This document shows, in pieces, positions 49,760 to 64,000 of a stretch of DNA of 64,000 bases (within the stretch, counting starts at the first letter, position 1; each line of letters starts with the position of its first letter). Under the pieces are notes generated by a model. That model searched no databases, was not told the origin of the DNA, and worked only from the letters and a program-made list of their open reading frames with translations. Made by a program: the position numbers and the translations under genes. This DNA comes from an uncultured Chloroflexia bacterium (GTDB lineage Bacteria > Chloroflexota > Limnocylindria > Limnocylindrales > CSP1-4). Location of the stretch: NCBI GenBank assembly GCA_963752475.1, contig CAVVYR010000029.1, forward strand, positions 32,001 to 96,000, given 5' to 3'.

Positions 49760-50275
49760 CATCAGCCGGAGCTCGCAGGTGCGCGCGAGCCATGCGAAGT
49801 CCGGCGGCACCGCCGACGGAACTTCGCCGCCACCGCCGTGGCCTCGTCGAGACCGCTGGCCTCGCTGCGGAAGAAGAAGCGCGTCGTGGGCTTGGCGCGC
49901 CCCGAGCACTCCTCCACGAAGTCGAGGTTGACTTCGCCCGGGAATGAGACCGGAACCAGCACAGCGCGCCCACCGAAGCGATCGATCGAGGCCTGCAGGT
50001 CGGTGGTGGGATGGGTGAAGTTCAGGTTGGCACGCATCGAAGGCCGTCAGTGTGTCGGTGATCTTGCGCAGCAAGCGATGGACGGCTTCTGGCTGCTCGT
50101 GCCACGCCATGAAGAAGGCCCCCTTCAGTCCCGGTCCACGCGTGGAGCCACAGAACACGGTCATCGCCGATGACCTCCAAGCTGCGCTGGTCCATCTCCA
50201 GCTGGCGCTTGCCAAGCTGAGCCCGGTCTTCGATGCTTCCGTGCACCAGGACTCGAACGTCAGCGTAACGATCGC
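49760..50275 (-). pseudogene. Decayed remnant resembling a UroD/MtaA-family gene
   Basis: Protein-like fragments in three different frames, e.g. GPGLKGAFFMAWHEQPEAVHRLLRKITDTL and NFTHPTTDLQASIDRFGGRAVL. Confidence 0.45.
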
Positions 50276-50415
50276 CGAACGCATTGACTCGAAACGCGTC
50301 GCGCGGAGCGTTCCGCAGCGTCTGCGATCCTTGCCGCTCAAAGCGGCTGCAGGAACCAGCAACGCACTTCCGCGACTGCTGGATGCGACCGGTCGCACAC
50401 GACCACGTACGTTTC

Positions 50416-50429
50416 TGAAACCGCTTACA
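50416..50429. promoter_or_regulatory. LacI-family operator TGAAACCGCTTACA
   Basis: Fits the consensus, 30 bp upstream of a LacI start codon. Confidence 0.75.
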
Positions 50430-50459
50430 TTCAGTTTCAGCTTTGGTACAGTCCCTGCC

Positions 50460-51509
50460 ATGCCCACGAGCAAGCGAGCGCGCAACGAAGAGCCGGTGAC
50501 CATCTACGAGGTCGCTCGCGAGGCCGGCGTGTCGACGGCCACGGTCTCGCGCGTCATCAACGGACAGCGGCACGTCCGCGAGTCCACACGCCTCAAGGTC
50601 GAGGAGGCGATGGACCGCCTCGGCTACGTCGCCAACCGCCAGGCCCGCGGCCTCGCTGGCGGCCGCTCACGCATGATCGGCCTGCTCGTGCACGAGGTCG
50701 GCTCGTCCTACTTCACCCAGATCATCCGAGGTATCGACCACGCCGTCGCCGACATCGGCTACGACCTCGTGCTCTACACCTCGCATGCGCGTGTCGAGGC
50801 TGAGGCGCAGCACGCGCTGCAGCTGGCGACAGGTCCGGTGGACGGCATCATCTTCGTGCTCGCGGTCGATCCGGCCAAGTACGTCGAGACGCTGCGCGGG
50901 CGGGGCATGCCCTTCGTGATGCTGGACCACTCGCACGAACTCAGCGGGACCACGTTCGTGACCGCCTCCAACCGCAGCGGCGCCAAAGACGCCATCGAGC
51001 ACCTCATCGGCCTGGGGCATCAGCGCATCGGCTTCATCACCGGCAAGTCCGGGGTCAGCTCGACGAGCGAGCGGCTGGCCGGTTATCGCGATGCAATGCA
51101 GGACGCGGACATCCGTCACGACGACGAGCTGGTGGTGACCGGCGACTTTCTGGAAGGACGGGGCTATCGGGCCACTGAGCAGCTGCTGGAGCTGGAGCGG
51201 CCGCCGACGGCCATCTTCACCTCGGCCGACATGGCGGCGTTCGGTGCGATCAAGGCGTGCCGGGCAGCAGGCCTGCGCGTGCCCGAGGATATCTCCATCG
51301 TCGGCTTCGACGACATCCCTGAGGCCTCCCTGGTGATGCCACCGCTGACGACCGTGCGCCAGCCGCTGATGGAGATGGGCACCACGGCCGTACGCTTGCT
51401 GCAGCGGCTGATGGACGAGCCCGAGCTCACCCCAAGCAAGACGGAACTCGTGACCGAGCTGGTGGTGCGCGACTCCACGGCCCCGCCACCGAAGGCGCCC
51501 GGGCGCTAG
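50460..51509 (+). CDS. LacI family regulator
   Basis: VTIYEVAREAGVSTATVSRVIN, GHQRIG, VPEDISIVGFDD and PPLTTV motifs. Confidence 0.96.
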   Translation: MPTSKRARNEEPVTIYEVAREAGVSTATVSRVINGQRHVRESTRLKVEEAMDRLGYVANRQARGLAGGRSRMIGLLVHEVGSSYFTQIIRGIDHAVADIGYDLVLYTSHARVEAEAQHALQLATGPVDGIIFVLAVDPAKYVETLRGRGMPFVMLDHSHELSGTTFVTASNRSGAKDAIEHLIGLGHQRIGFITGKSGVSSTSERLAGYRDAMQDADIRHDDELVVTGDFLEGRGYRATEQLLELERPPTAIFTSADMAAFGAIKACRAAGLRVPEDISIVGFDDIPEASLVMPPLTTVRQPLMEMGTTAVRLLQRLMDEPELTPSKTELVTELVVRDSTAPPPKAPGR

Positions 51510-52915
51510 GGCGACCGGGACGACAGCGGCTCCAGTCCGTTGCGGGCGATGACCTCGCGATACCAGTACGCGCTGTCCTTGGGCGTGCGCACCAGCGTGT
51601 CGTAGTCGACGTGGACGATGCCGAAGCGCTTGTGGTAGCCGTGTGACCACTCGAAGTTGTCCATCAGCGACCACCCGAAGTAGCCGCGCACGTCGGCTCC
51701 TTCTTCGATGGCGCGATGCACGGCCCTCAGATGCGCATCGAGGTAGGCGATGCGCCGCGGATCATGGCAGCGGCCATCGACCACGGGATCGTCGTAGGCA
51801 CAGCCGTTCTCGGTGACGTACAGGGGCGGCAGGTTCGGGTAGGCCTTCGCGAGGCCCACCAGGAGGGCGCGGAGGCCGTCGGGCGTGATGGGCCAACCCA
51901 TATCGGTGCGCTCGCCTTCGGGCGCGAAGGGCACGGCATCCTTCATGCCCGGGGTGGCCAGCCAGCTGCCGCCAGGCTGGGCGCGCACGTGATCATCGTT
52001 GTAGTAGTTGACGCCCAGCCAGTCGAGCGGCTGCGCGATGGCCTCGAGGTCTCCCTCGTCGATCGGCAGACCACCGAAGGCCGCCAGGTCCGCCATGGCA
52101 TCCTCGGGATAGCGGCCCAGCAACATCGGCTCCATCCAGACACGGTTGCGCAGCGCGTCGTACCGACGCACGCCATCGGCTGCGGCGCCATCGGGGTCGT
52201 CGCCCACGACGTGCATGGGCATGAGGTTGATGACCACGCCCTGCTGAGGTTCAGGGTCGATGGCACGCATGGTCTCGACCGCCAGGCCATGCGAGAGGTT
52301 GATGTGATGGACGGCCCTGGTCGCAGCGACCGGATCGGTGCGACCCGGGGCATGTGACGGATCCGCGTAGCCCAGCATCGAGGAGCACCAGGGCTCGTTG
52401 TGCGTGGCCCAGAGGTCGACCCGGTCGTGCAGCGCCTCGAACATGATGCCGGCGTACTCGGCGAAGCGGTAGGCGGTATCGCGCGCGGGCCAGCCGCCAG
52501 CGTCCTCCAGCGCCTGCGGCAGATCCCAGTGGTAGAGCGTCAGCGCCGGTGTGATGTCATCGGCCAGCAGTTCATCCACGAGGCGCGAATAGAAGTCGAG
52601 CCCTGGCTGGTTGACAGGGCCGGAGCCGGTGGGCTGGATGCGCGGCCAGGCCACGCTGAAGCGGTAGGCCCGCAGGCCCAGCCGAGCCATCATCTCGACG
52701 TCCTGCGGCATGCGGTTGTAGTGGTCTACCGACACGTCTCCGGTGTGACCGTCCTTGATCAGGTCGGTGTGGTGGCACTGCGTGTCCCAGATGCTGGGTC
52801 CGCGTCCGTCCTGGTAGACGGCGCCCTCGATCTGATAGGCGCTGGTGGCGGCGCCCCAGAGGAAGCCCTCTGGGAAGCGGAGTACGTCGGTGTCGGTCAT
52901 GGGTGGATCACTCAC
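51506..52915 (-). CDS. GH1 beta-glucosidase
   Basis: FPEGFLWGAATSAYQIEG, THNEP (acid/base), VTENG (nucleophile) and DNFEW motifs. Confidence 0.96.
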   Translation of the reverse strand: MSDPPMTDTDVLRFPEGFLWGAATSAYQIEGAVYQDGRGPSIWDTQCHHTDLIKDGHTGDVSVDHYNRMPQDVEMMARLGLRAYRFSVAWPRIQPTGSGPVNQPGLDFYSRLVDELLADDITPALTLYHWDLPQALEDAGGWPARDTAYRFAEYAGIMFEALHDRVDLWATHNEPWCSSMLGYADPSHAPGRTDPVAATRAVHHINLSHGLAVETMRAIDPEPQQGVVINLMPMHVVGDDPDGAAADGVRRYDALRNRVWMEPMLLGRYPEDAMADLAAFGGLPIDEGDLEAIAQPLDWLGVNYYNDDHVRAQPGGSWLATPGMKDAVPFAPEGERTDMGWPITPDGLRALLVGLAKAYPNLPPLYVTENGCAYDDPVVDGRCHDPRRIAYLDAHLRAVHRAIEEGADVRGYFGWSLMDNFEWSHGYHKRFGIVHVDYDTLVRTPKDSAYWYREVIARNGLEPLSSRSP

Positions 52916-52930
52916 TGTCTCAACCTTCGC

Positions 52931-53932
52931 CTATCCGGTCGGGACGGTCGAGCCCCGGATGAGCAGCTCCGTGGGGAGGATCACGCGCTGGGGCACGGTG
53001 TGGCGGTCCGAAAGCAGTCGGAAGAGCGTGCGCGCCGCTTCCTTGCCCAGCAAGCGCTCGTCCTGCCGCATCGTCGTGAGCGGCGGACCCGCCGTCGGTG
53101 CCTCGGCCACGTCGTCGAACCCGGCGACGGCGACTTCCTGAGGCACGCGCACACCACGACGTCGCAACTCGTCGAGCGCACCCAGGGCCATGGAGTCACT
53201 GGCCGCGAAGATCGCGTCGACGCCAGTCTCGAGGAGCGCGACCGCACCGTCGGTGCCCGACCGTCTAAGGTAGTCACCGCGATACACGAGCCCATCGGTA
53301 GGCAGCCCGGCACGGGCCATGGCTCGGTGATAGCCGGTGAGGCGCTCAGCGGCCGAGGTCCCGCCCTGACGACCAGCGATGTGACCGATGCGTGTCCGCC
53401 CGATCGACAGCAGATGGTCGACCACCTGCTCGGCAGCCCGTTCGTTGTGGATGTCGATGTAGCTGGCCGAGCGATCCTGGTGTCGGTGACCGATGAGCAC
53501 GGTCGGAAGCTCTGACGCCACCAGCCCGTCAACCAGCGGGTCGTCGAGCGTGTCGGCCGTGACCAGCAGGCCGTCGAACAGACGCATGCCCAGGATGCGC
53601 TCGAGCGTCTGCTCCTTCGACAGGTTCGCGAGCCAGAGCATCATGCCCGCATCCTTCTCCGCGAGGCCTTCGGTGATGCCGTGGAAGAGGCCGGAGAAGA
53701 AGGGGTCCTGGAAGAGCGTGTCCGGGTTGACGTGGATGACCACACCCACGACGCCCGACCGGCCGGAGGCCAACGTGCGGGCGACGAGGTTGGGCCGATA
53801 GCCGGTCTCCTCCATGGCCTCGAGCACGCGCTGGCGAGTAGCTTGCGAGACCGAGCCGCCGTTGAGCACGCGCGAGACCGTCGATCGCGAGACGCCACTG
53901 ACGGCCGCGACGTCCTCCAGCTTCCCGCTCAT
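52931..53932 (-). CDS. LacI family regulator
   Basis: LEDVAAVSGVSRSTVSRVLN, VAVAGFDD and PPLTT motifs. Confidence 0.95.
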   Translation of the reverse strand: MSGKLEDVAAVSGVSRSTVSRVLNGGSVSQATRQRVLEAMEETGYRPNLVARTLASGRSGVVGVVIHVNPDTLFQDPFFSGLFHGITEGLAEKDAGMMLWLANLSKEQTLERILGMRLFDGLLVTADTLDDPLVDGLVASELPTVLIGHRHQDRSASYIDIHNERAAEQVVDHLLSIGRTRIGHIAGRQGGTSAAERLTGYHRAMARAGLPTDGLVYRGDYLRRSGTDGAVALLETGVDAIFAASDSMALGALDELRRRGVRVPQEVAVAGFDDVAEAPTAGPPLTTMRQDERLLGKEAARTLFRLLSDRHTVPQRVILPTELLIRGSTVPTG

Positions 53933-54175
53933 GCTGATCCTCTCTCCATGCTGGCCATACCTGCCTCCGGCGCGCTCCACACGACGGCTCACTATGCACC
54001 GTGCGCCAAGGTGCGGTCAGCGTGGCCCTGCATCGAGGGCCATGGGGTGTTCTCGGTGCATTCGTTTGCTACGATGGAAGCATCCGCCGCGCAGGCGTAC
54101 GGGGCTCGTCCAGCCGACCAGATCGGTCAGCAGATGCAAGAGCCCGCGACCTGTCGGAGGAGGAGGTATGCCGGT

Positions 54176-55342
<1,167 letters not shown>

Positions 55343-55503: not shown

Positions 55504-56373
55504 GTGGCAGACCTGCCGTTCATCGACACGCACGTCCATTTCTACGACCTCGAGAACCCGAGACTGCGCTACGACCTGCTCAGGCCGGGTGCCAAACACG
55601 AGATCATCGAGGACATCCGCGCCATCAAGGCCTCCCGCTACTGGGCTGACGACTGGCTGGCCGAGACGCGTTTCGCCAATGTCGCCAAGTCGATCCACGT
55701 GCAGTGTGCCGGCGGGATCGTGGACCCGGTCGAGGAGACAAGGTGGATCCAGGCCTTCGCTGACCGACTGGGCCATCCGCATGGCATCGTGGCCGAGGTC
55801 CACCTTGCAGAGCCGGATGCTGAAGCGGTCATCGAACGCCACCTGGAGTTCGCCAATGTCCGCGGCGTCCGTGAGTACCGCGATGACGACTACCTCCTGG
55901 ATCCGGCTTGGCAGCGCGGCTTCTCATCCCTCGACAAGCACGGCCTCCTCAGCTGCGTGCACGCCAAGCCCGAGACCTACGCAGACGTCAAGGCGCTCGC
56001 GACCAAGCATTCCAACATGATCGTGTGCCTGGACCACGCCGGCTTTCCTCGCGGGCGCGACCCCGAGTACTTCGCGTTGTGGAGGCGGGAGATCCTGAAC
56101 CTCGCCGAAGCGCCCAATGTCATCGTCAAGGTCTCGGGCCTCGACATCTGCGACCCTCGCTGGACGATCGACTCGGTCCGCCCATGGGTCTCGACCTGCA
56201 TCGAAGCCTTTGGGCCCGCGCGCACGATCTTCGCCTCGAACTGGCCCTTCGGGCGTCTGTTCGCCTCTTACCCCGATGTGGTCGACACCTGGGCGGCGCT
56301 GATCAGCGAGTACTCCGATGGCGAGCAAGCGGCCATGTTCAGTGGCAACGCGGAGCGCTACTTCCGCATCTGA
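55504..56373 (+). CDS. Amidohydrolase_2 family, sugar-lactone lactonase-like (L-fuconolactonase/LigI group)
   Basis: IDTHVH, VRGVR, LDHAG, KVSG and FASNWP motifs. Confidence 0.87.
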   Translation: MADLPFIDTHVHFYDLENPRLRYDLLRPGAKHEIIEDIRAIKASRYWADDWLAETRFANVAKSIHVQCAGGIVDPVEETRWIQAFADRLGHPHGIVAEVHLAEPDAEAVIERHLEFANVRGVREYRDDDYLLDPAWQRGFSSLDKHGLLSCVHAKPETYADVKALATKHSNMIVCLDHAGFPRGRDPEYFALWRREILNLAEAPNVIVKVSGLDICDPRWTIDSVRPWVSTCIEAFGPARTIFASNWPFGRLFASYPDVVDTWAALISEYSDGEQAAMFSGNAERYFRI

Positions 56374-56384
56374 CCACGGAAGGC

Positions 56385-56434
56385 TTGCCTGCACCAGCGC
56401 CCCGCGCTAGGCTGAACGAGGCGTGTATGCACAC
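56385..56434 (+). promoter_or_regulatory. Promoter TTGCCT-17-TAGGCT followed by operator copy 1 (GCGTGTATGCACAC)
   Basis: The motif's reverse complement GTGTGCATACACGC matches the sites at 60056 and 62392. Confidence 0.72.
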
Positions 56435-56478
56435 CTGCATGCGAGTCGGGCTCAGACAGGCAGATCGAGGAGTGAAAC

Positions 56479-57483
56479 ATGCAGCGCATCATCGATGACC
56501 CGACACTGGTCGTGGAGGACATGCTGCGCGGCTTCCTGCGCGCCCATCCCGGCCTCGTAGCCCCGACCGATGATCCGCGCGTCGTGCGCTACGTAGGCGC
56601 ACCGGTCGACGGCAAGGTCGGCATCGTCACCGGTGGTGGCTCCGGGCACAAGCCCGCCTTCATCGGCTATCTCGGGCGCAACATGGTCGATGCCGTGGCC
56701 GTCGGTGAGATCTTCAGCTCCCCTTCGGCATCGGCGTTCCTGAACGCCTTCAAGGCGGCTGACGCTGGCGCCGGGGTGGCCTGCCTCTACGGCAACTATG
56801 CGGGCGACAACATGAACGTCAAGCTGGCGCGCAGGAAGGCCGAGAAGGCGGGCATCCGCGTCGAGACCGTCATCGCCAACGATGACGTGCCCTCTGCGCC
56901 ACCCGACGAGCGTGAGAAGCGCCGTGGCGTCGCGGGCGAAGTCCTGCTGTGGAAGGTCGGCGGCGCCAAGGCCGCCCTCGGAGGAACGCTCGACGAGGTC
57001 ATCGCAGCGGCACAGAAGGCCATCGACAACACGCGCAGCATCGGCGTGGGCCTGACCCCCTGCACCATCCCGGCCCTGGGCAAGCCCAACTTCAGCATCG
57101 AGCCCGGGATGATGGAGGTCGGTATCGGCCACCACGGCGAACCGGGCGTCTCGGTCGAGTCGCTCAAACCCGCGAAGGACATCGCCCGCGGGATGATGGA
57201 CGTCATCCTGCCGGACCTGCCCTTCGAGCGCGGCGATGAGGTCACCATCCTGGTCTCCGGGCTCGGCGCCACGCCGGTGATGGAGCTGTACATCCTCTTC
57301 GACCACATCGCGGCCATGGCCGAGGAGGTCGGCTTGTCCATCCACCGGCCGTACGTCGGCAACTACTTCACCTCCCTCGAGATGATGGGTGCGACCGTCA
57401 CGCTCATGCGGCTCGACCAAGAACTCAAGACCTGCCTCGACCTCGAGGCTGACAGCGTCGGCCTACGCCAGTTCCCCGCATGA
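56479..57483 (+). CDS. dhaK: Dihydroxyacetone/erythrulose kinase substrate-binding subunit (DhaK family)
   Basis: GGGSGHKP, IFSSP, NYAGD, RRGVAG, HHGEPG and TSLEM motifs. Confidence 0.92.
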   Translation: MQRIIDDPTLVVEDMLRGFLRAHPGLVAPTDDPRVVRYVGAPVDGKVGIVTGGGSGHKPAFIGYLGRNMVDAVAVGEIFSSPSASAFLNAFKAADAGAGVACLYGNYAGDNMNVKLARRKAEKAGIRVETVIANDDVPSAPPDEREKRRGVAGEVLLWKVGGAKAALGGTLDEVIAAAQKAIDNTRSIGVGLTPCTIPALGKPNFSIEPGMMEVGIGHHGEPGVSVESLKPAKDIARGMMDVILPDLPFERGDEVTILVSGLGATPVMELYILFDHIAAMAEEVGLSIHRPYVGNYFTSLEMMGATVTLMRLDQELKTCLDLEADSVGLRQFPA

Positions 57484-58136
57484 CCAGCGAACGATCCTTC
57501 GCCAACCGCGATGGCCGGGTCATCATCGACGCGCTCATCGCCGCCATCGAGGACAACGCCGAGAGCCTCAGCCAGATCGACGGTGCCATCGGCGACGGTG
57601 ACCACGGCATCAACATGCGCAAGGGCTTCCTCATGGTCCGCGACGAGCTCGATGGCGAGATCGAGCTCTCGGCCGGCCTGACGCTCATCGGCGACACCCT
57701 CATGATCCGCATCGGCGGCGCGATGGGGCCGCTCTACGGCAGCTTCTTCAGCGAGATGGGGGATGCCTGTGAGGGCCTCGAGCGGATCGACGCGGCCAGC
57801 TTCGGCCGCATGCTCGATGCCGGACGCGAGGCAGTCGAGGACATCGGCGAGGCCCAGGTGGGCGACAAGACGCTGCTCGACACGCTCGTGCCTGCGATGG
57901 AGGCCTATCACGCGTCGATCGCCGCCGGCGACTCGTTCGCGGACGCGCTGGCGGCCTTGAGCAAGGCCGCTGAGAGCGGGAAGGACTCGACGCGGGACCT
58001 GGTCGCCAAGGTTGGCCGGGCTAGCCGCCTTGGCGAACGCTCAAGAGGGGTGCTGGACGCTGGGGCCACCTCCTGTTGGCTCCTGCTCGCCGCCATGGCC
58101 ACGTCGATGCGACAGCTGTTGACTGCGGCCGACTGA
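57480..58136 (+). CDS. dhaL: DhaL family ADP-binding subunit
   Basis: DGAIGDGDHG, GGAMGPLYG, GDKT, GRAS.LGERS and DAGA motifs. Confidence 0.94.
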   Translation: MTSERSFANRDGRVIIDALIAAIEDNAESLSQIDGAIGDGDHGINMRKGFLMVRDELDGEIELSAGLTLIGDTLMIRIGGAMGPLYGSFFSEMGDACEGLERIDAASFGRMLDAGREAVEDIGEAQVGDKTLLDTLVPAMEAYHASIAAGDSFADALAALSKAAESGKDSTRDLVAKVGRASRLGERSRGVLDAGATSCWLLLAAMATSMRQLLTAAD

Positions 58137-58171
58137 TCGACGGGAGCCGGGTCTGGACCCGCTCGCAGCCG

Positions 58172-59191
58172 TCAGGGGCGGATGACCGTCTTGACGATGT
58201 CGGCGTCACGGGCAGTGCGGTGGAAGGCCTCCACGGCCTCTTCGAGCCGGACGTCGAGCGTGAGGATGTTCGTCACCGGGACCGAGCCCTCCGCGATGAG
58301 TTCGATGGCACGCTCGACGGCAGCACGCGTGACGCCGACGCTGGCGTGGATGGTCAGATTGTTCCAGACGACTTTGAACTCGTCGATCTCCACGACACGA
58401 CCGACGTTGCCGAGCCAGACGATCTGGCCGCCGCCAGCGGTAGCATCCACCGCGCTCGCGACCGAGGCCGTGGTGCCCACCGCTTCGACCGTCAGGTCCA
58501 CACCGCGGCCATCGGTGGCGGCCGCCAGTCGGTCGGCAGCATCGGCGGCGGTCGGGTCGAGCACGTGCGTCGCACCCATCTCCTGCGCGATCTGGCGCCG
58601 CTTCTCGAGCGGCTCGAGGACGATGAGTCGGCGAGGCCGGTGCAACGCCAGGACGGCGGCGGCGATGAGCCCGATCGGTCCCCCGCCCACCACCGCGACG
58701 CTGTCGCCGGCATCGACCTTGGCGCGTGAGAGGCCCTTGACCACGACGGCCAGTGGTTCGATCAGGGCCGCTTGCTTGAAGCTGACCTCATCCGGGATGG
58801 GGATGGCCGTGCGCTCACGGATGCGAAAGAGCTCTGCGAACGCGCCCGGGAGGTCGCCTCCATACACCTTGCGATGGGGGCACAGGTCGAAGGCGCCGCG
58901 CCGACACTGGTCACAATCCGCGCACCACTCCATGGGCATGCTGAAGACACGATCTCCGGGCGAGACGGCCCGCACTCCAGTGCCAACGGCGACCACCTCG
59001 CCGCAGGCCTCATGGCCCATGACGAGCGGTGCGACCCGACGGCCATTCTTGCCGTCGTAGCCGTGCGTGTCCGATCCACACACGCTGGCGGCTCGGACGC
59101 GCACCAGCACATCGTCTTCTCGCTCGATGATGGGGTCGGGTTGATCGACGATCTCCAGCGTCGAAGGGGCGCTGAGCAGCATCGCTCTCAT
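58172..59191 (-). CDS. Zn-dependent polyol/sugar(-phosphate) dehydrogenase (GatD/sorbitol dehydrogenase-like)
   Basis: CGSD, GHE, C..C.QC......C, IEP and GGGPIG motifs. Confidence 0.92.
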   Translation of the reverse strand: MRAMLLSAPSTLEIVDQPDPIIEREDDVLVRVRAASVCGSDTHGYDGKNGRRVAPLVMGHEACGEVVAVGTGVRAVSPGDRVFSMPMEWCADCDQCRRGAFDLCPHRKVYGGDLPGAFAELFRIRERTAIPIPDEVSFKQAALIEPLAVVVKGLSRAKVDAGDSVAVVGGGPIGLIAAAVLALHRPRRLIVLEPLEKRRQIAQEMGATHVLDPTAADAADRLAAATDGRGVDLTVEAVGTTASVASAVDATAGGGQIVWLGNVGRVVEIDEFKVVWNNLTIHASVGVTRAAVERAIELIAEGSVPVTNILTLDVRLEEAVEAFHRTARDADIVKTVIRP

Positions 59192-59239
59192 GTCGTCAGT
59201 CCTTATGTCGGAGGCTGCGGCAGCGGGTCGGTACCTACC

Positions 59240-59989
59240 CTAGGCCCGAACGGCCTTCACTCGCTGCACGTACTCCCTGAGCATCGGTTCCGCCTCAGGC
59301 CCAAGCAGGTAGGGGTGGCCGATGAGGACGATGTCTGCGCCAGCCGCCACGGCCGCCTCGCCGCCAGCCGGATCGAAGGTAACCACCCCCACCGGGACGT
59401 CGACGGCCGCCTTGGTGCGGGTGAGCATATCGATCGTATCGTCAGCGTCCGGATCCTCCAAGCGCGCATCGCCACCGTAGTGGACGAGCACAACCTGGGC
59501 CCCCATGTCCACGACCTCGCGGGCTCTTGCCACCGGGTCTGGCGCAGCGTAAAGATCGACGACGACGGTGATACCGGTTTCCGCCTGACCCTCGAGCGCT
59601 TGGCGGATGCTGGCATCGTGGGCGACCCCGCAGATGGTCACGAAGTCGGCACCCATCGAGGCCGCCGAGACGACGTACTTCTTGGCACCATCGACGATCT
59701 TGACGTCGGCCAGGACCGGATCATCGGGGAACGCCTGCTTGAACGGCTCCATCACCGACAGTCCCTGGTAGAGCACCAGGGGCGTACCGAACTCCAGCAG
59801 GTCGACCCCGGCACGCTTGGCCATGTGCCCGATCTCGATAGCCTGATCGACCGTGGGGACGTCGATCGACACCTGCACGATGGGGGCCGGCGTGGCCATG
59901 AGCGCGTCGAGTGCGGCAGAACGGGCCAGGGTCCGGGCCGCTGCCGCGCTGGCGCCCGCCGGAGGTTTGGGTCGTGTCGGAGTCGTCAT
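59240..59989 (-). CDS. OMP decarboxylase/HUMPS superfamily protein, 3-hexulose-6-phosphate synthase-like
   Basis: VQVSID, LEFGTPL, LADVKIVD, VVDL and VHYGGD motifs. Confidence 0.88.
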   Translation of the reverse strand: MTTPTRPKPPAGASAAAARTLARSAALDALMATPAPIVQVSIDVPTVDQAIEIGHMAKRAGVDLLEFGTPLVLYQGLSVMEPFKQAFPDDPVLADVKIVDGAKKYVVSAASMGADFVTICGVAHDASIRQALEGQAETGITVVVDLYAAPDPVARAREVVDMGAQVVLVHYGGDARLEDPDADDTIDMLTRTKAAVDVPVGVVTFDPAGGEAAVAAGADIVLIGHPYLLGPEAEPMLREYVQRVKAVRA

Positions 59990-60055
59990 TCCATCGCTCC
60001 CTCGTGTCCGGGCGCTGGTGCGCGATCTCGGCAAGTTGAGGCTTGCCTGCGGGAC

Positions 60056-60076
60056 GTGTGCATGCAAGCATATCAG
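60056..60076. promoter_or_regulatory. Operator copy 2, GTGTGCATGCAAGCATATCAG, between the divergent HPS-like and transaldolase-like genes
   Basis: 17 of 21 positions match the copy at 62392-62412; overlaps a minus-strand TATGCT -10. Confidence 0.75.
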
Positions 60077-60128
60077 GGTACACAGGCGAGAATCAACGCA
60101 GAGCAACCAGGAAGCCACCAGGAGCCGC

Positions 60129-61172
60129 ATGAGCGAGACGTATTTCGAATGGCTACGCCACCAGACACCGAGCCGTGTCTGGATCAACAACCCCACCGCT
60201 GCGGAGATCGAGCTCTCGCTCGCGCAGGGCGCGGTCGCATGCACCACCAACCCCGCCTACGGGGGCAACCTGCTTGGCCGAGCCCCTGCCGAGATCCGAC
60301 CGGACATCGTGGAAGTCGCCGCTGGAGGAGCCAGAGGCGACGTGGCCGTGGCGCTCGTGCAGGAGCGTCTGATCGCTCGCATCCTGCCGCACTTCGCCGC
60401 CATCCATGAGCGCAGCGGTGGCCGCGAGGGCTGGGTCTCGATGCAGGGTGCGCCGGAGCTGGACACCTCGCTCGATCCCATCCTTGACGCTGCGCGCGCG
60501 GCCCGCTCGCTGGCGGACAACTGCATCCCCAAGATCCCCGCCACCGTGCCCGGCCTAGCCGCGCTCGATGTGCTGGTGCGGGAAGACGAGCCCGTGCTGA
60601 TGACGGAGGTCTTCAGCCTGGCCCAGGTCGTTCAGACCTGCGAGCGCTACCAGCGGGCCTCGGCGGAGAGCGGCAACGAGCCAGTCTTCATCATGGCGCC
60701 CATCACAGGCATCTTCGGCGATCACCTCAAGAAGGTCGCGGCTCGAGAAGGCACGACCATCGCGGCCGAGGCCGTGATGTGGGCGGGCGTCATCTGGGCT
60801 CGGGCTGCCAAGCGACTGGTCGACGAGCGCCACTACCCGGTGCAGCTGCTGTATGGGGGAGCCAGGAACACGGCCGACCTGACCGGGCTGGTGGGCGGGC
60901 CCCATGCGGCTACGGTCAACTGGTCGACCTACGTGGAGGTCCTTGAAGCGGATCCCGAGCGACGCCAGACCGTGAACGAGCCGGCGCCGGCGGACATCGA
61001 AGAGCAGCTGCTCGAGACGTTCGAGGACTTCCGCCTAGCGATGGATGAGCAGGGCTTGAGAGCCGACGAGTTCGAGGACTTCGGACCGGTGCAGCACTTC
61101 CGCGATGCATTCATCGCGGGCTGGGCGGCGGTTCGCGACGCCATCGACGAAGAGGTAGCCGCAGGAACCTGA
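60129..61172 (+). CDS. Transaldolase/FSA family protein, divergent active site
   Basis: WINNP, TTNP, VSMQG, PKIP (Schiff-base Lys) and TEVFS..Q motifs; AGGAG RBS. Confidence 0.88.
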   Translation: MSETYFEWLRHQTPSRVWINNPTAAEIELSLAQGAVACTTNPAYGGNLLGRAPAEIRPDIVEVAAGGARGDVAVALVQERLIARILPHFAAIHERSGGREGWVSMQGAPELDTSLDPILDAARAARSLADNCIPKIPATVPGLAALDVLVREDEPVLMTEVFSLAQVVQTCERYQRASAESGNEPVFIMAPITGIFGDHLKKVAAREGTTIAAEAVMWAGVIWARAAKRLVDERHYPVQLLYGGARNTADLTGLVGGPHAATVNWSTYVEVLEADPERRQTVNEPAPADIEEQLLETFEDFRLAMDEQGLRADEFEDFGPVQHFRDAFIAGWAAVRDAIDEEVAAGT

Positions 61173-61219
61173 GCCGGCGGCGGCCAGCGGCTCGATGAGC
61201 CACAGCCCCCGGGCGCCCG

Positions 61220-62374
61220 CTAGCGGTAGACGCCGGCCTCTCGGAATGCCTCCACCATGGCCACGATGTTCTCGGGCGGTACATCCGCCTGGATGTTGTG
61301 GACCGTGGCGAAGATGTAGCCGCCGCCGGGCATAAGCGTCTCGACGTTCCGTAGCACCTGCTCGCGGACCTCGAGCGGCGTCCCGCGCGGCAGCACCTTC
61401 TGCGTGTCGACGCCGCCGCCCCAGAAGGCGATCTCGCGCCCGTACTCACGCTTGAGTTCCGGCAGGTCCATGCCTTCGGCTGTGAACTGCACCGGGTTGA
61501 GCCCGTCCACGCCGGCCTCGATGAGATCGGGGATGAGCGACTTGATGGCGCCATCCGAGTGCAGGAAGACCTTGGCCCGGCTGTTGGCATGGACGAAGGC
61601 GTACAGCTCCGAGATGCGCGGCTTGATCATCTTGCGCCACAGGTCCGGAGCGATGAGCGGAGCCATCTGGCTGCCGTAGTCGTCGGCATCGTAGATGACA
61701 TCGAGGATGTCCCCGATCTCCCCGAAGACGGTCTCCCAGAAGCGCAGCTTGATCTCAAGGGCCTGGTCGAGGATGGCACCGGCCAGCGCCTGGTCCTGGA
61801 CCAGGTCCATGAAGAAGCGCTCGAAACCCCGCATCCACAGCGAAACCTCCAGCGTCCCGGGGATGATGCCCTTGCAGGCAGAGGCTCGATGCTCTTCGAA
61901 GACGACGCGCTCGCAGTCAGCTCGGATGTTGCTGAAGCGATGTGGGTCGGTGGGGTCGGGCCAGGGATACGCGGCCACCTCTGCCGGAGTCGTCACATCC
62001 GCCAGTGGACTGTCGTAGAGATCGTAGTAGAGGCCACCGTCCTTGGGCTGGCGCCAACCCATCCCGTACTCGTCGGTGAGCTCACGGTACTCCCCTGCTT
62101 CCCTGACCTCCAGATGCCAGCTGGCCGGATCGGGCGGACCCGTGGCCACGATCCCCACGTCAGCGCCCAGCAGGTCCTGGACGTCACGGTCGGTCCAGGC
62201 CAGCCCAAGACGGATATCCGCGACGTTGACCTCCGGGGAGAGCCCCAAGTACTCGCGCAATCGGCGGTAGGCGATGTGGTGGCTGCTGGTGACGAACGTG
62301 CCCCCGAAGTCATAGGGCACACGGTCAGGCTCGCGGTGGTCGAGCGCGGCGAGGACGCGTTCGCGCGAGGTCAT
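61220..62374 (-). CDS. Uroporphyrinogen decarboxylase (URO-D/MtaA) family protein, not HemE
   Basis: MTSRERVLAALDHREPDRVP, MRGFERFFMDL, DDYGSQ, FLHSDG, NPVQ, GGGVDTQ and GGGYIF..VHNIQ..VPPEN; lacks the HemE MRQAGR motif. Confidence 0.92.
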   Translation of the reverse strand: MTSRERVLAALDHREPDRVPYDFGGTFVTSSHHIAYRRLREYLGLSPEVNVADIRLGLAWTDRDVQDLLGADVGIVATGPPDPASWHLEVREAGEYRELTDEYGMGWRQPKDGGLYYDLYDSPLADVTTPAEVAAYPWPDPTDPHRFSNIRADCERVVFEEHRASACKGIIPGTLEVSLWMRGFERFFMDLVQDQALAGAILDQALEIKLRFWETVFGEIGDILDVIYDADDYGSQMAPLIAPDLWRKMIKPRISELYAFVHANSRAKVFLHSDGAIKSLIPDLIEAGVDGLNPVQFTAEGMDLPELKREYGREIAFWGGGVDTQKVLPRGTPLEVREQVLRNVETLMPGGGYIFATVHNIQADVPPENIVAMVEAFREAGVYR

Positions 62375-62391
62375 GTCACCTCTGGAGGCGG

Positions 62392-62422
62392 CTGGTATGC
62401 GTGTATACACACTAACAGTATA
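62392..62422 (-). promoter_or_regulatory. -10 TATACT followed by operator copy 3 (GTGTGTATACACGCATACCAG)
   Basis: Contains the palindrome GTGTATACAC immediately downstream of the -10. Confidence 0.78.
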
Positions 62423-62467
62423 GTGGCTCGGGCCGACGCCGGCCAGTCGGGTCGCGGCTGACGCGAG

Positions 62468-63664
62468 CTACTCGATGGGGGCGGTCGACTCGCGCACGAT
62501 GAGCTCGACGGAGATGTCCTGCACGGTAGGCACTTCGTCGCCGTCGAGCACCCGGAACAGGGTGGCGGCGGCGGCGCGGCCGAGGTCATAGTAGGAGAGA
62601 CGCACCGTGGTCAGCGGCGGCTGCAGGTGCTGGGCGAACTCCATGTCGTCGAAGCTGACCACGGACAGATCCTGCGGGATGCGCAAGCCCAGTTCTGCGG
62701 CAACTTCGTAGACATCGAGCGCCAGGAAGTCGGCGCCACAGACGATGGCGGTGGGTCGCTCTTCCAGCTCCAGCAGTCGACCCGCGGCTAGCTTGCGGTC
62801 GTCGTCGAAGACGCTGTTCACGGCCGAGACCAACTCCCTCCCGACACGGATGCCATGGCCGTCGAGAGCTTCGATGAACCCAGCCTTGTGATCGCGGTAG
62901 GTATCGGTCGAGGCCGTCGCCGAGAGCAGCCCGATGCGACGATGCCCAAGGGCGACGAGGTGTTCCACGGCCATCGAACCAGCTGTGCGGGCGTCCACCA
63001 GAACCGCCGGCACGCCTGAGGCAGGATGCGTGCGTTTGATCAGGACGGCGCCCAGCTCCTGCTCGGCAGGGATGTCCACCACGCGCCAATCGACATCGCC
63101 CGCCACGCGGAACAACAGCCCATCGACGGGCTGATCGTGCAGCAGCTGGCGCAATGCCGTCGCGGCGGTCAGGGGATCGTTCACTGGCAGCACCGTCAGC
63201 AATGCGTCGCGCTCCCACATCGAAGACGCGATGCCCCCGACCAATTGACCGAAGGATCCACTGTTCTGCCGCCAGGCACTCTCGTTGTAGCCGATGATGA
63301 CGACCGCGATCCGTGCTCGTCGTCTCAGGCCGGTGACGAACGCACCGAGGCCGCCGCGTCGCTCGACGATGCCTTCATTGAGCAGATCGAGCAGAGCACG
63401 GCGAGCGGTTATCGATGACACGCTGAACTCATCACACATCTCACGCAGCGACGGGATGCGATCGCCCTGCTGGAGTTCGCCGGCTTCGATACGGCGGGTG
63501 ATCTCGTCACGGATACGCACGTACCGCGGGACATATGCGTTTTCCCTGCGGCGCGATCGTGACACGCTGGCAAGCATAGCGGTGGAGGGTGAGCCAGGCG
63601 AGGCTGTTCCGCCGTTGCCGCCGCGCGTCGCGGCCGCCGGTTCGACTCGCCGATCACTCGTCAA
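62468..63664 (-). CDS. GntR-HTH / LacI-sensor hybrid regulator (AraR-like architecture)
   Basis: PRYVRI..GDRIPS.RE...F.VS.ITARRAL..L..EG, then GHRRIG, IPQDLSVVSFDD and PPLTTV. The true start may be further downstream. Confidence 0.93.
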   Translation of the reverse strand: MTSDRRVEPAAATRGGNGGTASPGSPSTAMLASVSRSRRRENAYVPRYVRIRDEITRRIEAGELQQGDRIPSLREMCDEFSVSSITARRALLDLLNEGIVERRGGLGAFVTGLRRRARIAVVIIGYNESAWRQNSGSFGQLVGGIASSMWERDALLTVLPVNDPLTAATALRQLLHDQPVDGLLFRVAGDVDWRVVDIPAEQELGAVLIKRTHPASGVPAVLVDARTAGSMAVEHLVALGHRRIGLLSATASTDTYRDHKAGFIEALDGHGIRVGRELVSAVNSVFDDDRKLAAGRLLELEERPTAIVCGADFLALDVYEVAAELGLRIPQDLSVVSFDDMEFAQHLQPPLTTVRLSYYDLGRAAAATLFRVLDGDEVPTVQDISVELIVRESTAPIE

Positions 63665-63675
63665 GGGGCCACCTC

Positions 63676-64000
63676 CTAGGCCTTGTGGACACCCATCTCG
63701 TCCATCCAGGCGAAGGCATCGACACCGGCTGCACTGGGCCGATACTCACAGCCCACGGGCCGCTGGTAGCCGGTCTCGGCGATGGTCTGGAGGACGTTGC
63801 CGAAGTTGATCTCACCGCTACCCGGTTCGTTGCGGTCCGGGGCATCCGCGATCTGGTAGTGACCAGTCACGGGCGCCATCTCGCGGATGGTGGGGATGAG
63901 CTCACCCTGCGTGCGCTGCAGGTGATAGACGTCCAGCTGGAAGTCAACCCGACCGTCGAGCTGCACCAGGACCGACTTCGTTCGCGCGAGCGACGAGAGC
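63676..64000 (-). CDS. Hydroxypyruvate isomerase (Hyi) family protein, 5' end outside the window
   Basis: DVYHLQR..G, HYQIADAPDRNEPGSGEINF and VGCEYRP motifs. Confidence 0.9.
   Translation of the reverse strand, partial: LSSLARTKSVLVQLDGRVDFQLDVYHLQRTQGELIPTIREMAPVTGHYQIADAPDRNEPGSGEINFGNVLQTIAETGYQRPVGCEYRPSAAGVDAFAWMDEMGVHKA

Follow-up and report, generated by a model that had tools for sequence, protein, structure and literature searches.

Glycans of plants, algae and microbes often contain methylated sugars (4-O-methyl-glucuronate, 2-O-methyl-fucose, 2-O-methyl-xylose, the methyl-rhamnoses and pinitol are examples), whose methyl group blocks their ordinary catabolism. The sugar demethylases described in the portions of the literature at hand are oxidative: a marine P450 acts on 6-O-methyl-galactose, and a dioxygenase acts on 2'-O-methyl nucleosides. 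Here, we analyze a putative sugar-catabolic locus of ~21 kb that begins at 55.5k of a 64,000-nucleotide stretch of DNA (hereafter, the window) and runs ~12 kb beyond its end, to ~76.3k. The window corresponds to positions 32001-96000 of contig C29 in the metagenome-assembled genome (MAG) G000 (4,246,097 bases; 68% G+C), from a bacterium of soil or sediment, and positions beyond 64000 are given as window-equivalent coordinates on the same contig. Named relatives of the window proteins belong to Chloroflexota, mostly to 'Candidatus Limnocylindrales' MAGs. Two genes of the locus encode members of the uroporphyrinogen decarboxylase (URO-D) superfamily, UROD1 and UROD2, which, judging from their sequences, most likely are corrinoid-dependent methyltransferases and not decarboxylases.

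The described systems closest to this proposal are the corrinoid O-demethylases (MtvABC of Moorella, MtoABCD of Methermicoccus, and Odm of Acetobacterium and Desulfitobacterium). They combine a methyltransferase I (MT I) of the MtaA/CmuA branch, a small corrinoid protein with a DxHxxG motif, a methyltransferase II (MT II) that passes the methyl group to a pterin, and an ATP-dependent RACo-type activase. The same four component types are encoded in G000, and close relatives of UROD1 likewise adjoin corrinoid proteins, a pterin-binding protein and FolD. The known systems act on aryl methyl ethers in strict anaerobes, whereas the genes studied here lie in sugar loci under LacI/GntR regulators. 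In addition, the URO-D-like proteins carry H-x-D/C...H in place of the H-x-C...C of MtaA and an insert of ~75 residues, they mostly lack an adjacent corrinoid protein, and oxygen-dependent P450s lie alongside.

A second point of comparison is the marine flavobacterial cluster for 6-O-methyl-D-galactose, which, in the available parts of its descriptions, comprises the CYP236A P450 'Mgd', a ferredoxin, a ferredoxin reductase, an esterase, a Zn-dependent alcohol dehydrogenase (Zn-ADH) and formaldehyde detoxification through the ribulose monophosphate (RuMP) pathway (PMC10033563, PMC9400963). The grouping of P450, esterase and Zn-ADH is a conserved layout there (PMC10033563, in part), and Zobellia uses HPS and PHI to detoxify the formaldehyde that this P450 releases (PMC9400963, in part). 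Our locus likewise unites a P450, an esterase and a Zn-ADH in a sugar locus with a linked HPS-family gene, and its second Zn-ADH (ZnADH2) is of the same class as ZoADH and FoADH. Unlike the marine cluster, it shows no redox partners, its HPS-like protein is divergent, and no PHI gene is adjacent; the available parts of the marine reports, in turn, mention no URO-D-like proteins (PMC10033563, PMC9400963).

Finally, the carbon-skeleton genes recall the OtnI/OrnI routes for the acid sugars L-threonate, D-erythronate and D-ribonate and the LerK route for apionate and erythrulose. According to the accessible part of PMC13753588, C4-C5 sugar acids pass through a dehydrogenase, an OtnI/OrnI isomerase, a decarboxylation and a ketose kinase; the decarboxylase of the D-ribonate route is 'unidentified (or spontaneous)', and LerK phosphorylates both L- and D-erythrulose. 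The likeness lies in the dehydrogenase, the Hyi-fold 2-oxo/3-oxo isomerase, the loss of a C1 unit and the phosphorylation of a small ketose. Unlike those routes, our locus has no DUF1537 kinase, class II aldolase-type OtnC, ApnO or RLP, and its kinase is the two-subunit DhaKL; its transaldolase-like (TAL-like) and HPS-like proteins have no counterpart in them, and its Hyi-like protein scores below the NCBIfam equivalog cut-offs.

URO-D-like proteins and their corrinoid partners

Protein families were assigned with Pfam and NCBIfam. The URO-D superfamily comprises ~20 genes in G000 (23 Pfam matches; 22 matches to UROD1), and up to ~20 URO-D-like copies per genome are found in this genus. Four of the G000 genes score 189-205 bits against Pfam URO-D and appear to be better candidates for HemE or MtaA than UROD1 and UROD2, which score, with the others, 56-132 bits. 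UROD1 has no match to the hemE equivalog TIGR01464 at E<=1e-5, UROD2 reaches 32.3 bits against its cut-off of 303, and the score with the NCBIfam MtaA/CmuA model is 48.8 bits against a cut-off of 235. A profile of 14 paralogues matches MtaA (4ay7) at 111.5 bits versus 68.9 for the best HemE. The UROD1 model (TIM-barrel fold; pLDDT 94.7) gives the same order, with 4ay7 and 4ay8 as the best Foldseek matches (E 2.5e-16), followed by HemE and then MetE. The family is large: it forms 1,206 clusters (50% identity) at E<=1e-30, 7,796 of the 7,999 proteins scored reach E<=1e-20, and the ESM Atlas matches of the URO-D-like protein all fall in 'uroporphyrinogen decarboxylase family' clusters. The aryl-ether O-demethylase MT I enzymes MtvB and MtoB have been grouped with the MtaA/CmuA family (PMC8630106, in part).

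The placement extends to the putative metal site. The paralogue profile aligns an H-x-(C/D)-G motif and a later His with the H-I-C-G and Cys of MtaA; in UROD1 (H272-S-D274...H359) and UROD2 (H-N-D...H), these residues stand at the positions aligned to the H-I-C and Cys of MtaA. We take the H-x-C...Cys residues of MtaA to be its zinc ligands. The metal-ligand positions are kept by the URO-D-like family, and HemE lacks them; the exact H-x-C...C combination occurs in one G000 paralogue only (C27:48.2k). UROD1 further carries a beta-rich insert at residues ~50-125 (window 62000-62225) that is present in neither MtaA nor HemE and that lowers its TM-scores to 0.63-0.67.

G000 encodes five methyltransferase-type corrinoid proteins with DxHxxG, all outside the locus. 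It also encodes a RACo-type activase (224 bits), which Methanosarcina alone shares of the 14 genomes examined as controls, and a divergent Pterin_bind domain fused to MTHFR, and an FTHFS gene lies directly beside one of the corrinoid proteins. Most URO-D-like copies in G000 have no corrinoid protein next to them; their neighbors are sugar ABC transporters, KDPG aldolase with PfkB kinases, MR_MLE dehydratases, an FGGY kinase with a fucose-isomerase-like gene, lactonases, and LacI/GntR regulators. Corrinoid neighbors are nevertheless found among relatives. In locus L089 (genome G007), a LacI gene diverges from a URO-D gene, 77% identical to the G000 C27 paralogue and 50% to UROD1, that is followed by a corrinoid protein gene. 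Locus L090 unites a sugar ABC transporter, MR_MLE, a corrinoid protein and URO-D, and L081 also has a corrinoid protein beside a URO-D-like gene. Locus L091 contains a substrate-binding protein (SBP), RhaM, Amidohydro_2, AP_endonuc_2, three URO-D genes, Pterin_bind and FolD (Pfam), together with two corrinoid-protein matches (tblastn). Both the H-x-C...H and the H-x-D...H variants are present in corrinoid-adjacent copies.

Across 26 genomes of the genus, at least 22 of the 67 PF02607 places outside MetH have a URO-D-like place no more than 2 kb away, and 13 genomes have such pairs. The number of PF02607 matches per genome is 3-9 where URO-D-like matches number at least 8, and 1-2 in the nine genomes that have none; since the 26 genomes are kin, this co-variation is not an independent statistic. 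We also modeled UROD1 in complex with a G000 corrinoid protein. The complex scored 0.80, against 0.14 for the best of three controls; that level was attained in 58 of 80 solved complexes and in 2 of 110 mismatched pairs, the runs agreed in at least 98% of contacts, and the partner pLDDT was at least 85. In the modeled interface, the DxHxxG loop sits over the mouth of the UROD1 barrel, near residues 235-242 and 362-364 and next to H359, and residues 95, 110 and 115-118 of the insert contact the corrinoid protein. As a prediction, it supports binding between the two proteins.

An earlier note on the window had centered its proposed regulon on this URO-D-family enzyme. Its fit to MtaA over HemE, the corrinoid neighbors of its relatives and the modeled complex place it better in the corrinoid-methyltransferase branch than among decarboxylases, and UROD1 is probably a methyl-ether:corrinoid methyltransferase.

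Other URO-D and corrinoid genes of G000 lie in notable surroundings. A 'methyl island' at C19:6.8-25k (L093, L080), with a counterpart at C27:6-11k (L092), holds a corrinoid protein, FTHFS, the MTHFR-Pterin_bind fusion, LacI, a URO-D-like gene, SDR and GntR-FCD, and continues with a CUT2 ABC transporter, a URO-D-like gene, Amidohydro_2, SDR and an aldehyde dehydrogenase; the C27:6-11k copy of C19:6-11k gives the same scores and must be an artifact of assembly or a genuine duplication. At C6:212.6-217k (L084), three tandem URO-D-like genes adjoin a phosphotriesterase-family (lactonase-like) gene. Genes of an NAD-reducing [NiFe] hydrogenase (2Fe-2S thioredoxin-like, Nuo51-like, NuoG-like and NiFeSe hydrogenase subunits) stand directly 3' of a URO-D-like gene in L083 (C6:204-209k) and in L090 (contig C15 of genome G021). 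FecCD and Peripla_BP_2 (BtuCF-like) genes, possibly for cobalamin uptake, lie ~4 kb from a URO-D-like gene at C5:19.5-21.2k (L086). The corrinoid protein at C19:45.5-46.3k (L094) adjoins a DUF1638 protein, presumably of a companion family of corrinoid methyltransferase systems. A small B12-binding protein at C19:185.6k was rejected as a methyltransferase partner, since it adjoins MeaB and belongs to a mutase.

Operator, gene content and conservation of the locus

The exact 12-mer GTGTATRCACAC occurs twice in the whole genome (both strands), at 56423 and 62401, and both copies lie in this locus. A third copy, at 60056, has two mismatches and lies within a 24-base block that is identical in 7/7 aligned orthologous intergenic regions, while the flanks diverge. 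These three sites bear out the operator that the earlier note had seen at three promoters. The extended consensus is GCGTGTATrCAyAC, and weaker copies are found beyond the window at 73674 (between the divergent GDSL esterase and UROD2 genes) and ~74990 (upstream of P450b). With up to two mismatches, the dhaK site is retained in 8/11 related loci and the UROD1 site in 7/11; at this threshold, no operator was found in L014 and L010, the most distant of the 11 loci examined. The regulator is 82-97% identical in orthologous loci (57% in L010), and the start and ribosome site of the HPS-like gene are conserved among orthologues. Because the genome holds no exact operator outside the two copies of this locus, and because the sites and the block between the HPS-like and TAL-like genes are kept in orthologues, we read the locus as one conserved regulon under a single predicted repressor with a GntR helix-turn-helix (HTH) and a LacI-type periplasmic-binding-protein (PBP) domain.

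This regulator has a described counterpart in AraR of Bacillus subtilis, in which a GntR winged helix is joined to a sugar-binding domain of the LacI/GalR type. The two share the two-domain build and a palindromic operator with GT...AC half-sites between promoter and start codon; the consensus found here differs from the AraR box.

The features of the locus are as follows.

55504-56373, plus strand: Amidohydro_2, lactonase-like, 289 aa (Pfam PF04909, 119.8 bits); start GTG at 55504, ribosome site GAGGGAGGAG
56423-56434: operator copy 1, GTGTATGCACAC, 45 nt upstream of dhaK
56479-57483, plus strand: DhaK, putative dihydroxyacetone/ketose kinase subunit (Pfam Dak1, 363 bits)
57480-58136, plus strand: DhaL, nucleotide-binding subunit (Pfam Dak2, 173.6 bits)
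58172-59191, minus strand: ZnADH1, putative Zn-dependent polyol/secondary-alcohol dehydrogenase, in an operon behind the HPS-like gene (Pfam ADH_N, ADH_zinc_N)
59240-59989, minus strand: HPS/KGPDC-like protein of the OMP-decarboxylase fold (Pfam OMPdecase, 64.3 bits)
60056-60079: operator copy 2 in the conserved block GTGTGCATGCAAGCATATCAGGGT, two mismatches to the 12-mer, in the divergent promoter region between the HPS-like and TAL-like genes
60129-61172, plus strand: transaldolase-fold protein of a divergent family, 347 aa (Pfam TAL_FSA, 57.6 bits)
61220-62374, minus strand: UROD1, MtaA-like member of the URO-D superfamily (Pfam URO-D, 76.5 bits)
62401-62412: operator copy 3, GTGTATACACAC, 27 nt upstream of the UROD1 start
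62468 to ~63577, minus strand: regulator that pairs a GntR winged helix (N-terminal) with a LacI-type sugar-binding domain (C-terminal) (Pfam GntR 59.9, Peripla_BP_3 119.4, Peripla_BP_1 83.6 bits); the start may be 63577, 63565 or 63664
63676-64470, minus strand (3' part, 63676-64000, in the window): Hyi/OtnI-like gene of the xylose-isomerase fold (Pfam AP_endonuc_2, 120 bits)
64463-65776, minus strand: P450a
65757-66569, minus strand: SDR
66665-71355, minus strand: CUT2 ABC transporter (SBP 66665-67627, two permeases 67746-69745, ATPase 69742-71355)
71436-71750, plus strand: RhaM mutarotase (60.1 bits)
71808-72917, minus strand: ZnADH2, class-III-like Zn-ADH
72943-73635, minus strand: GDSL esterase
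73759-74907, plus strand: UROD2, second URO-D-like gene
75036-76307, plus strand: P450b

Pfam and NCBIfam thus recover, each in its place, all the clustered genes that the earlier note had named; its account held for the genes up to 64000 and missed the half of the locus that lies past the window end. It had also suggested that the flank might hold a transporter, DhaM or a corrinoid protein. The CUT2 transporter is there; no EIIA-man match, and so no DhaM, was found in G000 (88.8% complete); and the corrinoid proteins of the methyltransferase type lie elsewhere in the genome. The SBP gives no ligand clue, as its matches in the PDB (60-95 bits) are only generic relatives of the ribose, allose or YtfQ type.

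To assess conservation, 76 loci were fetched by alignment of TAL-like proteins. The neighbor lists of these loci and of the URO-D-like loci come from a simple GC3-based gene caller, which assigns some strands wrongly (C32:55-58k; the URO-D gene at C19:13.8k) and may miss genes shorter than 80-90 aa, such as those for ferredoxins. Eight loci (L002, L003, L004, L005, L046, L066, L069 and L014) keep most of the set formed by Amidohydro_2, DhaKL, ZnADH1, HPS-like, TAL-like, UROD1, regulator, Hyi-like, P450, SDR and ABC genes. Two more, on short contigs (L006, L049), keep the six left-hand genes from Amidohydro_2 to TAL-like until the contig ends. The cluster expected by the earlier note to recur in other genomes is therefore kept in 10 of the 76 loci, and its view of a single conserved regulon agrees with the retention of both operator sites and gene set. 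The gene order is shuffled in L005, L069 and L014, where P450, UROD, TAL, DhaK and DhaL form one run, and the spacing between the UROD1 and UROD2 orthologues is ~12.5 kb in 5/5 genomes examined. In L010, RpiB, a Hyi-like gene and a regulator of the same type accompany a contiguous DhaK-DhaL-TAL-like run. The clustering exceeds chance. The remaining 66 TAL-like loci represent other sugar contexts (split transketolase, AP_endonuc_2, SDR, glyoxalase).

Of the 19 locus proteins scanned against NCBIfam curated cut-offs, DhaL alone reaches one (TIGR02365, 170.9 bits versus 138.3), in keeping with the earlier remark that the set matches no named pathway. DhaK, single-copy in G000, scores 330 bits against the TIGR02363 cut-off of 406, and because the genome has no EIIA-man/DhaM match, DhaKL is inferred to be the ATP-dependent form. 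The best NCBIfam match of Amidohydro_2 is L-fucono-1,5-lactonase (93.5 bits; cut-off 400), as is its best PDB match, weak at 56.7 bits (4dlf); in L014, Amidohydro_2 adjoins SDR. ZnADH1 matches IolM best (240 bits; cut-off 450) and, in the PDB, 4ej6, a xylitol dehydrogenase and Tdh. The Hyi-like protein reaches 239.6 bits against 353 for Hyi (TIGR03234) and 211.9 against 325 for OtnI (NF043033), and its fold family is clear from 1k77 YgbM (144 bits) and 3ngf (146 bits).

The TAL-like protein scores 40.6 bits against the NCBIfam transaldolase cut-off of 367. Its model (pLDDT 93.9) is nearest to the long transaldolases 7bbx, 3clm and 3r5e (TM 0.73-0.76, ~20% identity), and K135 of its PKIPAT motif is invariant in 15 sequences. 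We take this lysine to be at the Schiff-base position of transaldolase/FSA class I aldolases, and the WxNNPT motif presumably has Asn where the N-terminal motif of transaldolase has its catalytic Asp. By these features, the protein has a transaldolase fold with the lysine and is not a canonical transaldolase. The described succession of dehydrogenase, OtnI/OrnI isomerase, C1 loss and ketose kinase (PMC13753588, in part) fits these parts, and an aldolase that releases dihydroxyacetone (DHA), paired with a DHA kinase, would close such a route. Taken together, the downstream set (OtnI-like, HPS-like, TAL-like and DhaKL) points to an unnamed carbon-skeleton route.

A further group of genes may handle C1 units. 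All four P450 genes of G000 (two in this locus, one at C27 and one on C32) belong to sugar loci and have a URO-D-like gene at a distance of 1.0-8.3 kb, as would 6.6% of random points; the probability that three independent P450 loci lie so close is ~3e-4. The C27 P450 stands directly upstream of a URO-D-like gene, after which come KDPG aldolase, a paralogue of ZnADH2 (38% identical) and PfkB, and the C32 P450 is near a 63%-identical Amidohydro_2 paralogue (C32:58.6k). ZnADH2 matches ZoADH (8h2b) at 192 bits and FoADH (8h2a) at 186 bits. The HPS-like gene is the sole HPS-family match in G000, and its PDB matches favor HPS (9lj9 and 3ajx, 75-105 bits) over KGPDC (~40 bits).

Proposed route and competing explanations

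Our favored explanation, which we think equally apt to be right or wrong, is that the locus takes up and degrades an O-methylated monosaccharide, with demethylation by corrinoid and P450 enzymes, handling of the C1 unit, and then a combined oxidative, OtnI-like, aldolase and DHA-kinase route. Gene content, conservation, the operator, family placement and the corrinoid linkage of close relatives are observations; we infer the substrate, the order of the steps and every catalytic assignment that follows. The substrate would be an O-methyl sugar, possibly of the 6-deoxyhexose or pentose type and perhaps acylated, or, as a variant, an O-methyl cyclitol; the regulator would repress the locus through the GCGTGTATrCAyAC operators. 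First, the CUT2 transporter would bring the sugar in, and the RhaM-type mutarotase would equilibrate its anomers. Second, the GDSL esterase would take off the acyl group, and UROD1 and UROD2 would act as substrate-specific MT I enzymes, their His/Asp/His metal site serving as a Lewis acid on the ether oxygen. The methyl group would pass to Co(I) of a corrinoid protein encoded elsewhere (C19, C27) and on to the folate pool through the pterin-binding/MTHFR fusion and FTHFS, while the RACo-type activase would keep the cobalt reduced.

Third, with oxygen present, the two P450s would demethylate or hydroxylate oxidatively, and the formaldehyde released would be dealt with by the HPS-like enzyme and the class-III-like ADH. 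Fourth, the SDR would oxidize the bare sugar to a lactone, whose ring the Amidohydro_2 lactonase would open; ZnADH1 would oxidize the product, and the OtnI-like isomerase would shift the keto group to give a 3-oxo acid, which would lose CO2 spontaneously or through the HPS/KGPDC-like protein. Fifth, the transaldolase-fold enzyme would split off or transfer a DHA unit from the ketose thus formed, and DhaKL would convert it to dihydroxyacetone phosphate. The more specific claim within this scheme, that UROD1 and UROD2 form a branch of the MtaA-like family acting as O-methyl-sugar:corrinoid methyltransferases that deliver methyl groups to tetrahydrofolate, with P450s as a backup, is tentative, and we lean slightly toward doubting it.

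The earlier note had offered two guesses, a branched-chain sugar and an O-methylated one, with a C1 unit either released or captured, and the second is the better. The two P450s, the MtaA-like URO-D proteins, the sole HPS-family gene and the class-III-like ADH favor it; overall, the interpretation of the note is partly supported. In our literature search, no paper turned up that ties URO-D-like or corrinoid methyltransferases to methyl sugars. The mlp cluster was considered as a match and does not fit, since the available part of its description concerns methyl-sulfur and methyl-selenide metabolism in anoxic settings (PMC10418091).

If true, the proposal would describe the first route that demethylates sugars without oxidation, embedded in ordinary sugar regulons, and would open a new substrate class to corrinoid O-demethylases. 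Thousands of proteins that now bear the name 'uroporphyrinogen decarboxylase' would gain a function, and the turnover of carbohydrates in the abundant, uncultured Chloroflexota of soils would be tied to folate C1 metabolism and to the demand for cobalamin. The ability of Chloroflexota in soil and sediment to use methyl-decorated glycans from plants, algae and microbes would also be explained. The defined set of repressor, operator and transporter allows direct ligand finding.

Several observations weigh against the O-methyl-sugar explanation. A methyl group is harder to transfer from an alkyl (sugar) ether than from the aryl ethers on which known O-demethylases act. No PF02310 corrinoid protein, MT II or activase was found in the locus (55.5k to ~76k), and only two of the five methyltransferase-type corrinoid proteins of G000 touch a URO-D-like gene, with a third 7 kb off in the same island. 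The H-x-C...C site of MtaA is absent from UROD1 and UROD2, whose subfamily is known from sequence alone: of the 120 UROD1 relatives listed, none bears a name beyond the generic 'uroporphyrinogen decarboxylase' or URO-D 'family protein'. The complex modeling used small custom alignments, and its favorable outcome may reflect likeness to solved methyltransferase-corrinoid complexes. A P450 as the obligate partner of URO-D-like proteins was rejected, since 10 genomes of the genus with 8-18 URO-D-like matches have no P450.

On the oxidative side, the P450s resemble ordinary CYP107/109/125-type enzymes, no CYP236A structure being among the best 60 of 382 matches, and no ferredoxin or ferredoxin reductase was seen in the locus. 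ZnADH2 is about equally similar to class I/III ADHs (up to 199 bits), the HPS-like protein reaches 117.4 bits against the TIGR03128 cut-off of 200, and the best PHI-like gene of G000 lies on contig C26 and scores 140.7 bits against 160. Finally, the MAG is incomplete and contaminated (completeness 88.8%, contamination 5.8%), and its C27:6-11k duplicates C19:6-11k with the same scores.

The alternative that fares best, although we consider it unlikely, is a pathway for an undecorated sugar, sugar acid or tetritol of the apiose, D-ribonate or threonate type, in which the URO-D-like or HPS/KGPDC-like proteins are the missing 3-oxo-acid decarboxylases. The sugar would be oxidized to an aldonate, which would be converted from the 2-oxo to the 3-oxo form by the OtnI-like enzyme and decarboxylated, DhaKL would phosphorylate erythrulose or a pentulose in the manner of LerK, the TAL-like protein would rearrange the product, and the P450s would be accessory. 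The resemblance of the Hyi-like protein to the NCBIfam OtnI model and 1k77 YgbM fits such a pathway, as do the unassigned D-ribonate decarboxylase and the action of LerK on both erythrulose enantiomers (PMC13753588, in part). L010 unites its RpiB, Hyi-like, regulator, DhaKL and TAL-like genes with no close UROD1 relative or P450 nearby, TAL-like relatives adjoin split transketolases as in the apiose transketolase route, and the URO-D fold includes a true decarboxylase, HemE. However, the URO-D-like family fits MtaA over HemE and retains metal-ligand positions that HemE has not. The operons of close relatives also encode corrinoid proteins, pterin-binding methyltransferases and FolD, for which a decarboxylase would have no use; the modeled corrinoid complex passed its controls; and the two P450s, the esterase and the class-III-like ADH under the same operator get no role.

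It is distinctly improbable, in our view, that the URO-D-like proteins are corrinoid-independent metal enzymes for epimerization, hydrolysis or retro-aldol cleavage, with the corrinoid neighbors serving other methyltransferases. The H-x-D...H set is not known from any characterized MtaA-type enzyme, the insert of UROD1 and its TM-scores of only 0.63-0.67 set it apart from MtaA and HemE, and most G000 copies stand without an adjacent corrinoid protein. Yet copies with H-x-C...H and with H-x-D...H are both found directly beside corrinoid proteins, the adjacencies number at least 22 in 13 genomes, and the complex model puts the cobalamin-binding loop over the barrel mouth.

Least probable of all is that aromatic methyl ethers (for example, lignin-derived methoxyphenol glycosides) are demethylated as in the Mtv/Mto/Odm systems or by GcoA/PbdA while the sugar genes use the glycone: the characterized URO-D-type MT I enzymes named in the accessible part of PMC8630106 all use aryl methyl ethers, bacterial P450 O-demethylases for lignin aromatics are well known from the portions of the literature at hand, the P450s resemble enzymes for hydrophobic substrates, and a GH1 beta-glucosidase and two LacI regulators lie just upstream (50-54k), but the GH1 genes have their own LacI genes and no operator copy, no ring-cleavage, aromatic-transport or aromatic-acid genes were found in this locus or the other URO-D loci scanned, and the neighbors are CUT2/CUT1 sugar transporters, a mutarotase, lactonases, sugar-acid dehydratases, KDPG aldolases and LacI/GntR sugar regulators.

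Flanking genes and occurrence in sequencing runs

A search of sequencing runs with words from the locus gave no RNA run among the matches listed, and more than half of the words were found in one DNA run only. Upstream of the locus (50052-55342) lie a LacI gene, the GH1 beta-glucosidase (51506-52915, minus strand; 523 bits), a second LacI gene (52931-53992, minus strand) and a MalK/MsiK-type ABC ATPase (53681-55342, plus strand), and the operator is absent from all of these genes. Beyond P450b (76196-80288, equal to C29:108196-112288), the contig encodes an 853-aa FG-GAP/ASPIC protein, a VCPO/DUF6851 protein and, at C29:111833-112288 on the minus strand, an RpiB-like open reading frame with no operator copy that could specify an isomerase of the erythrulose-4-phosphate type.

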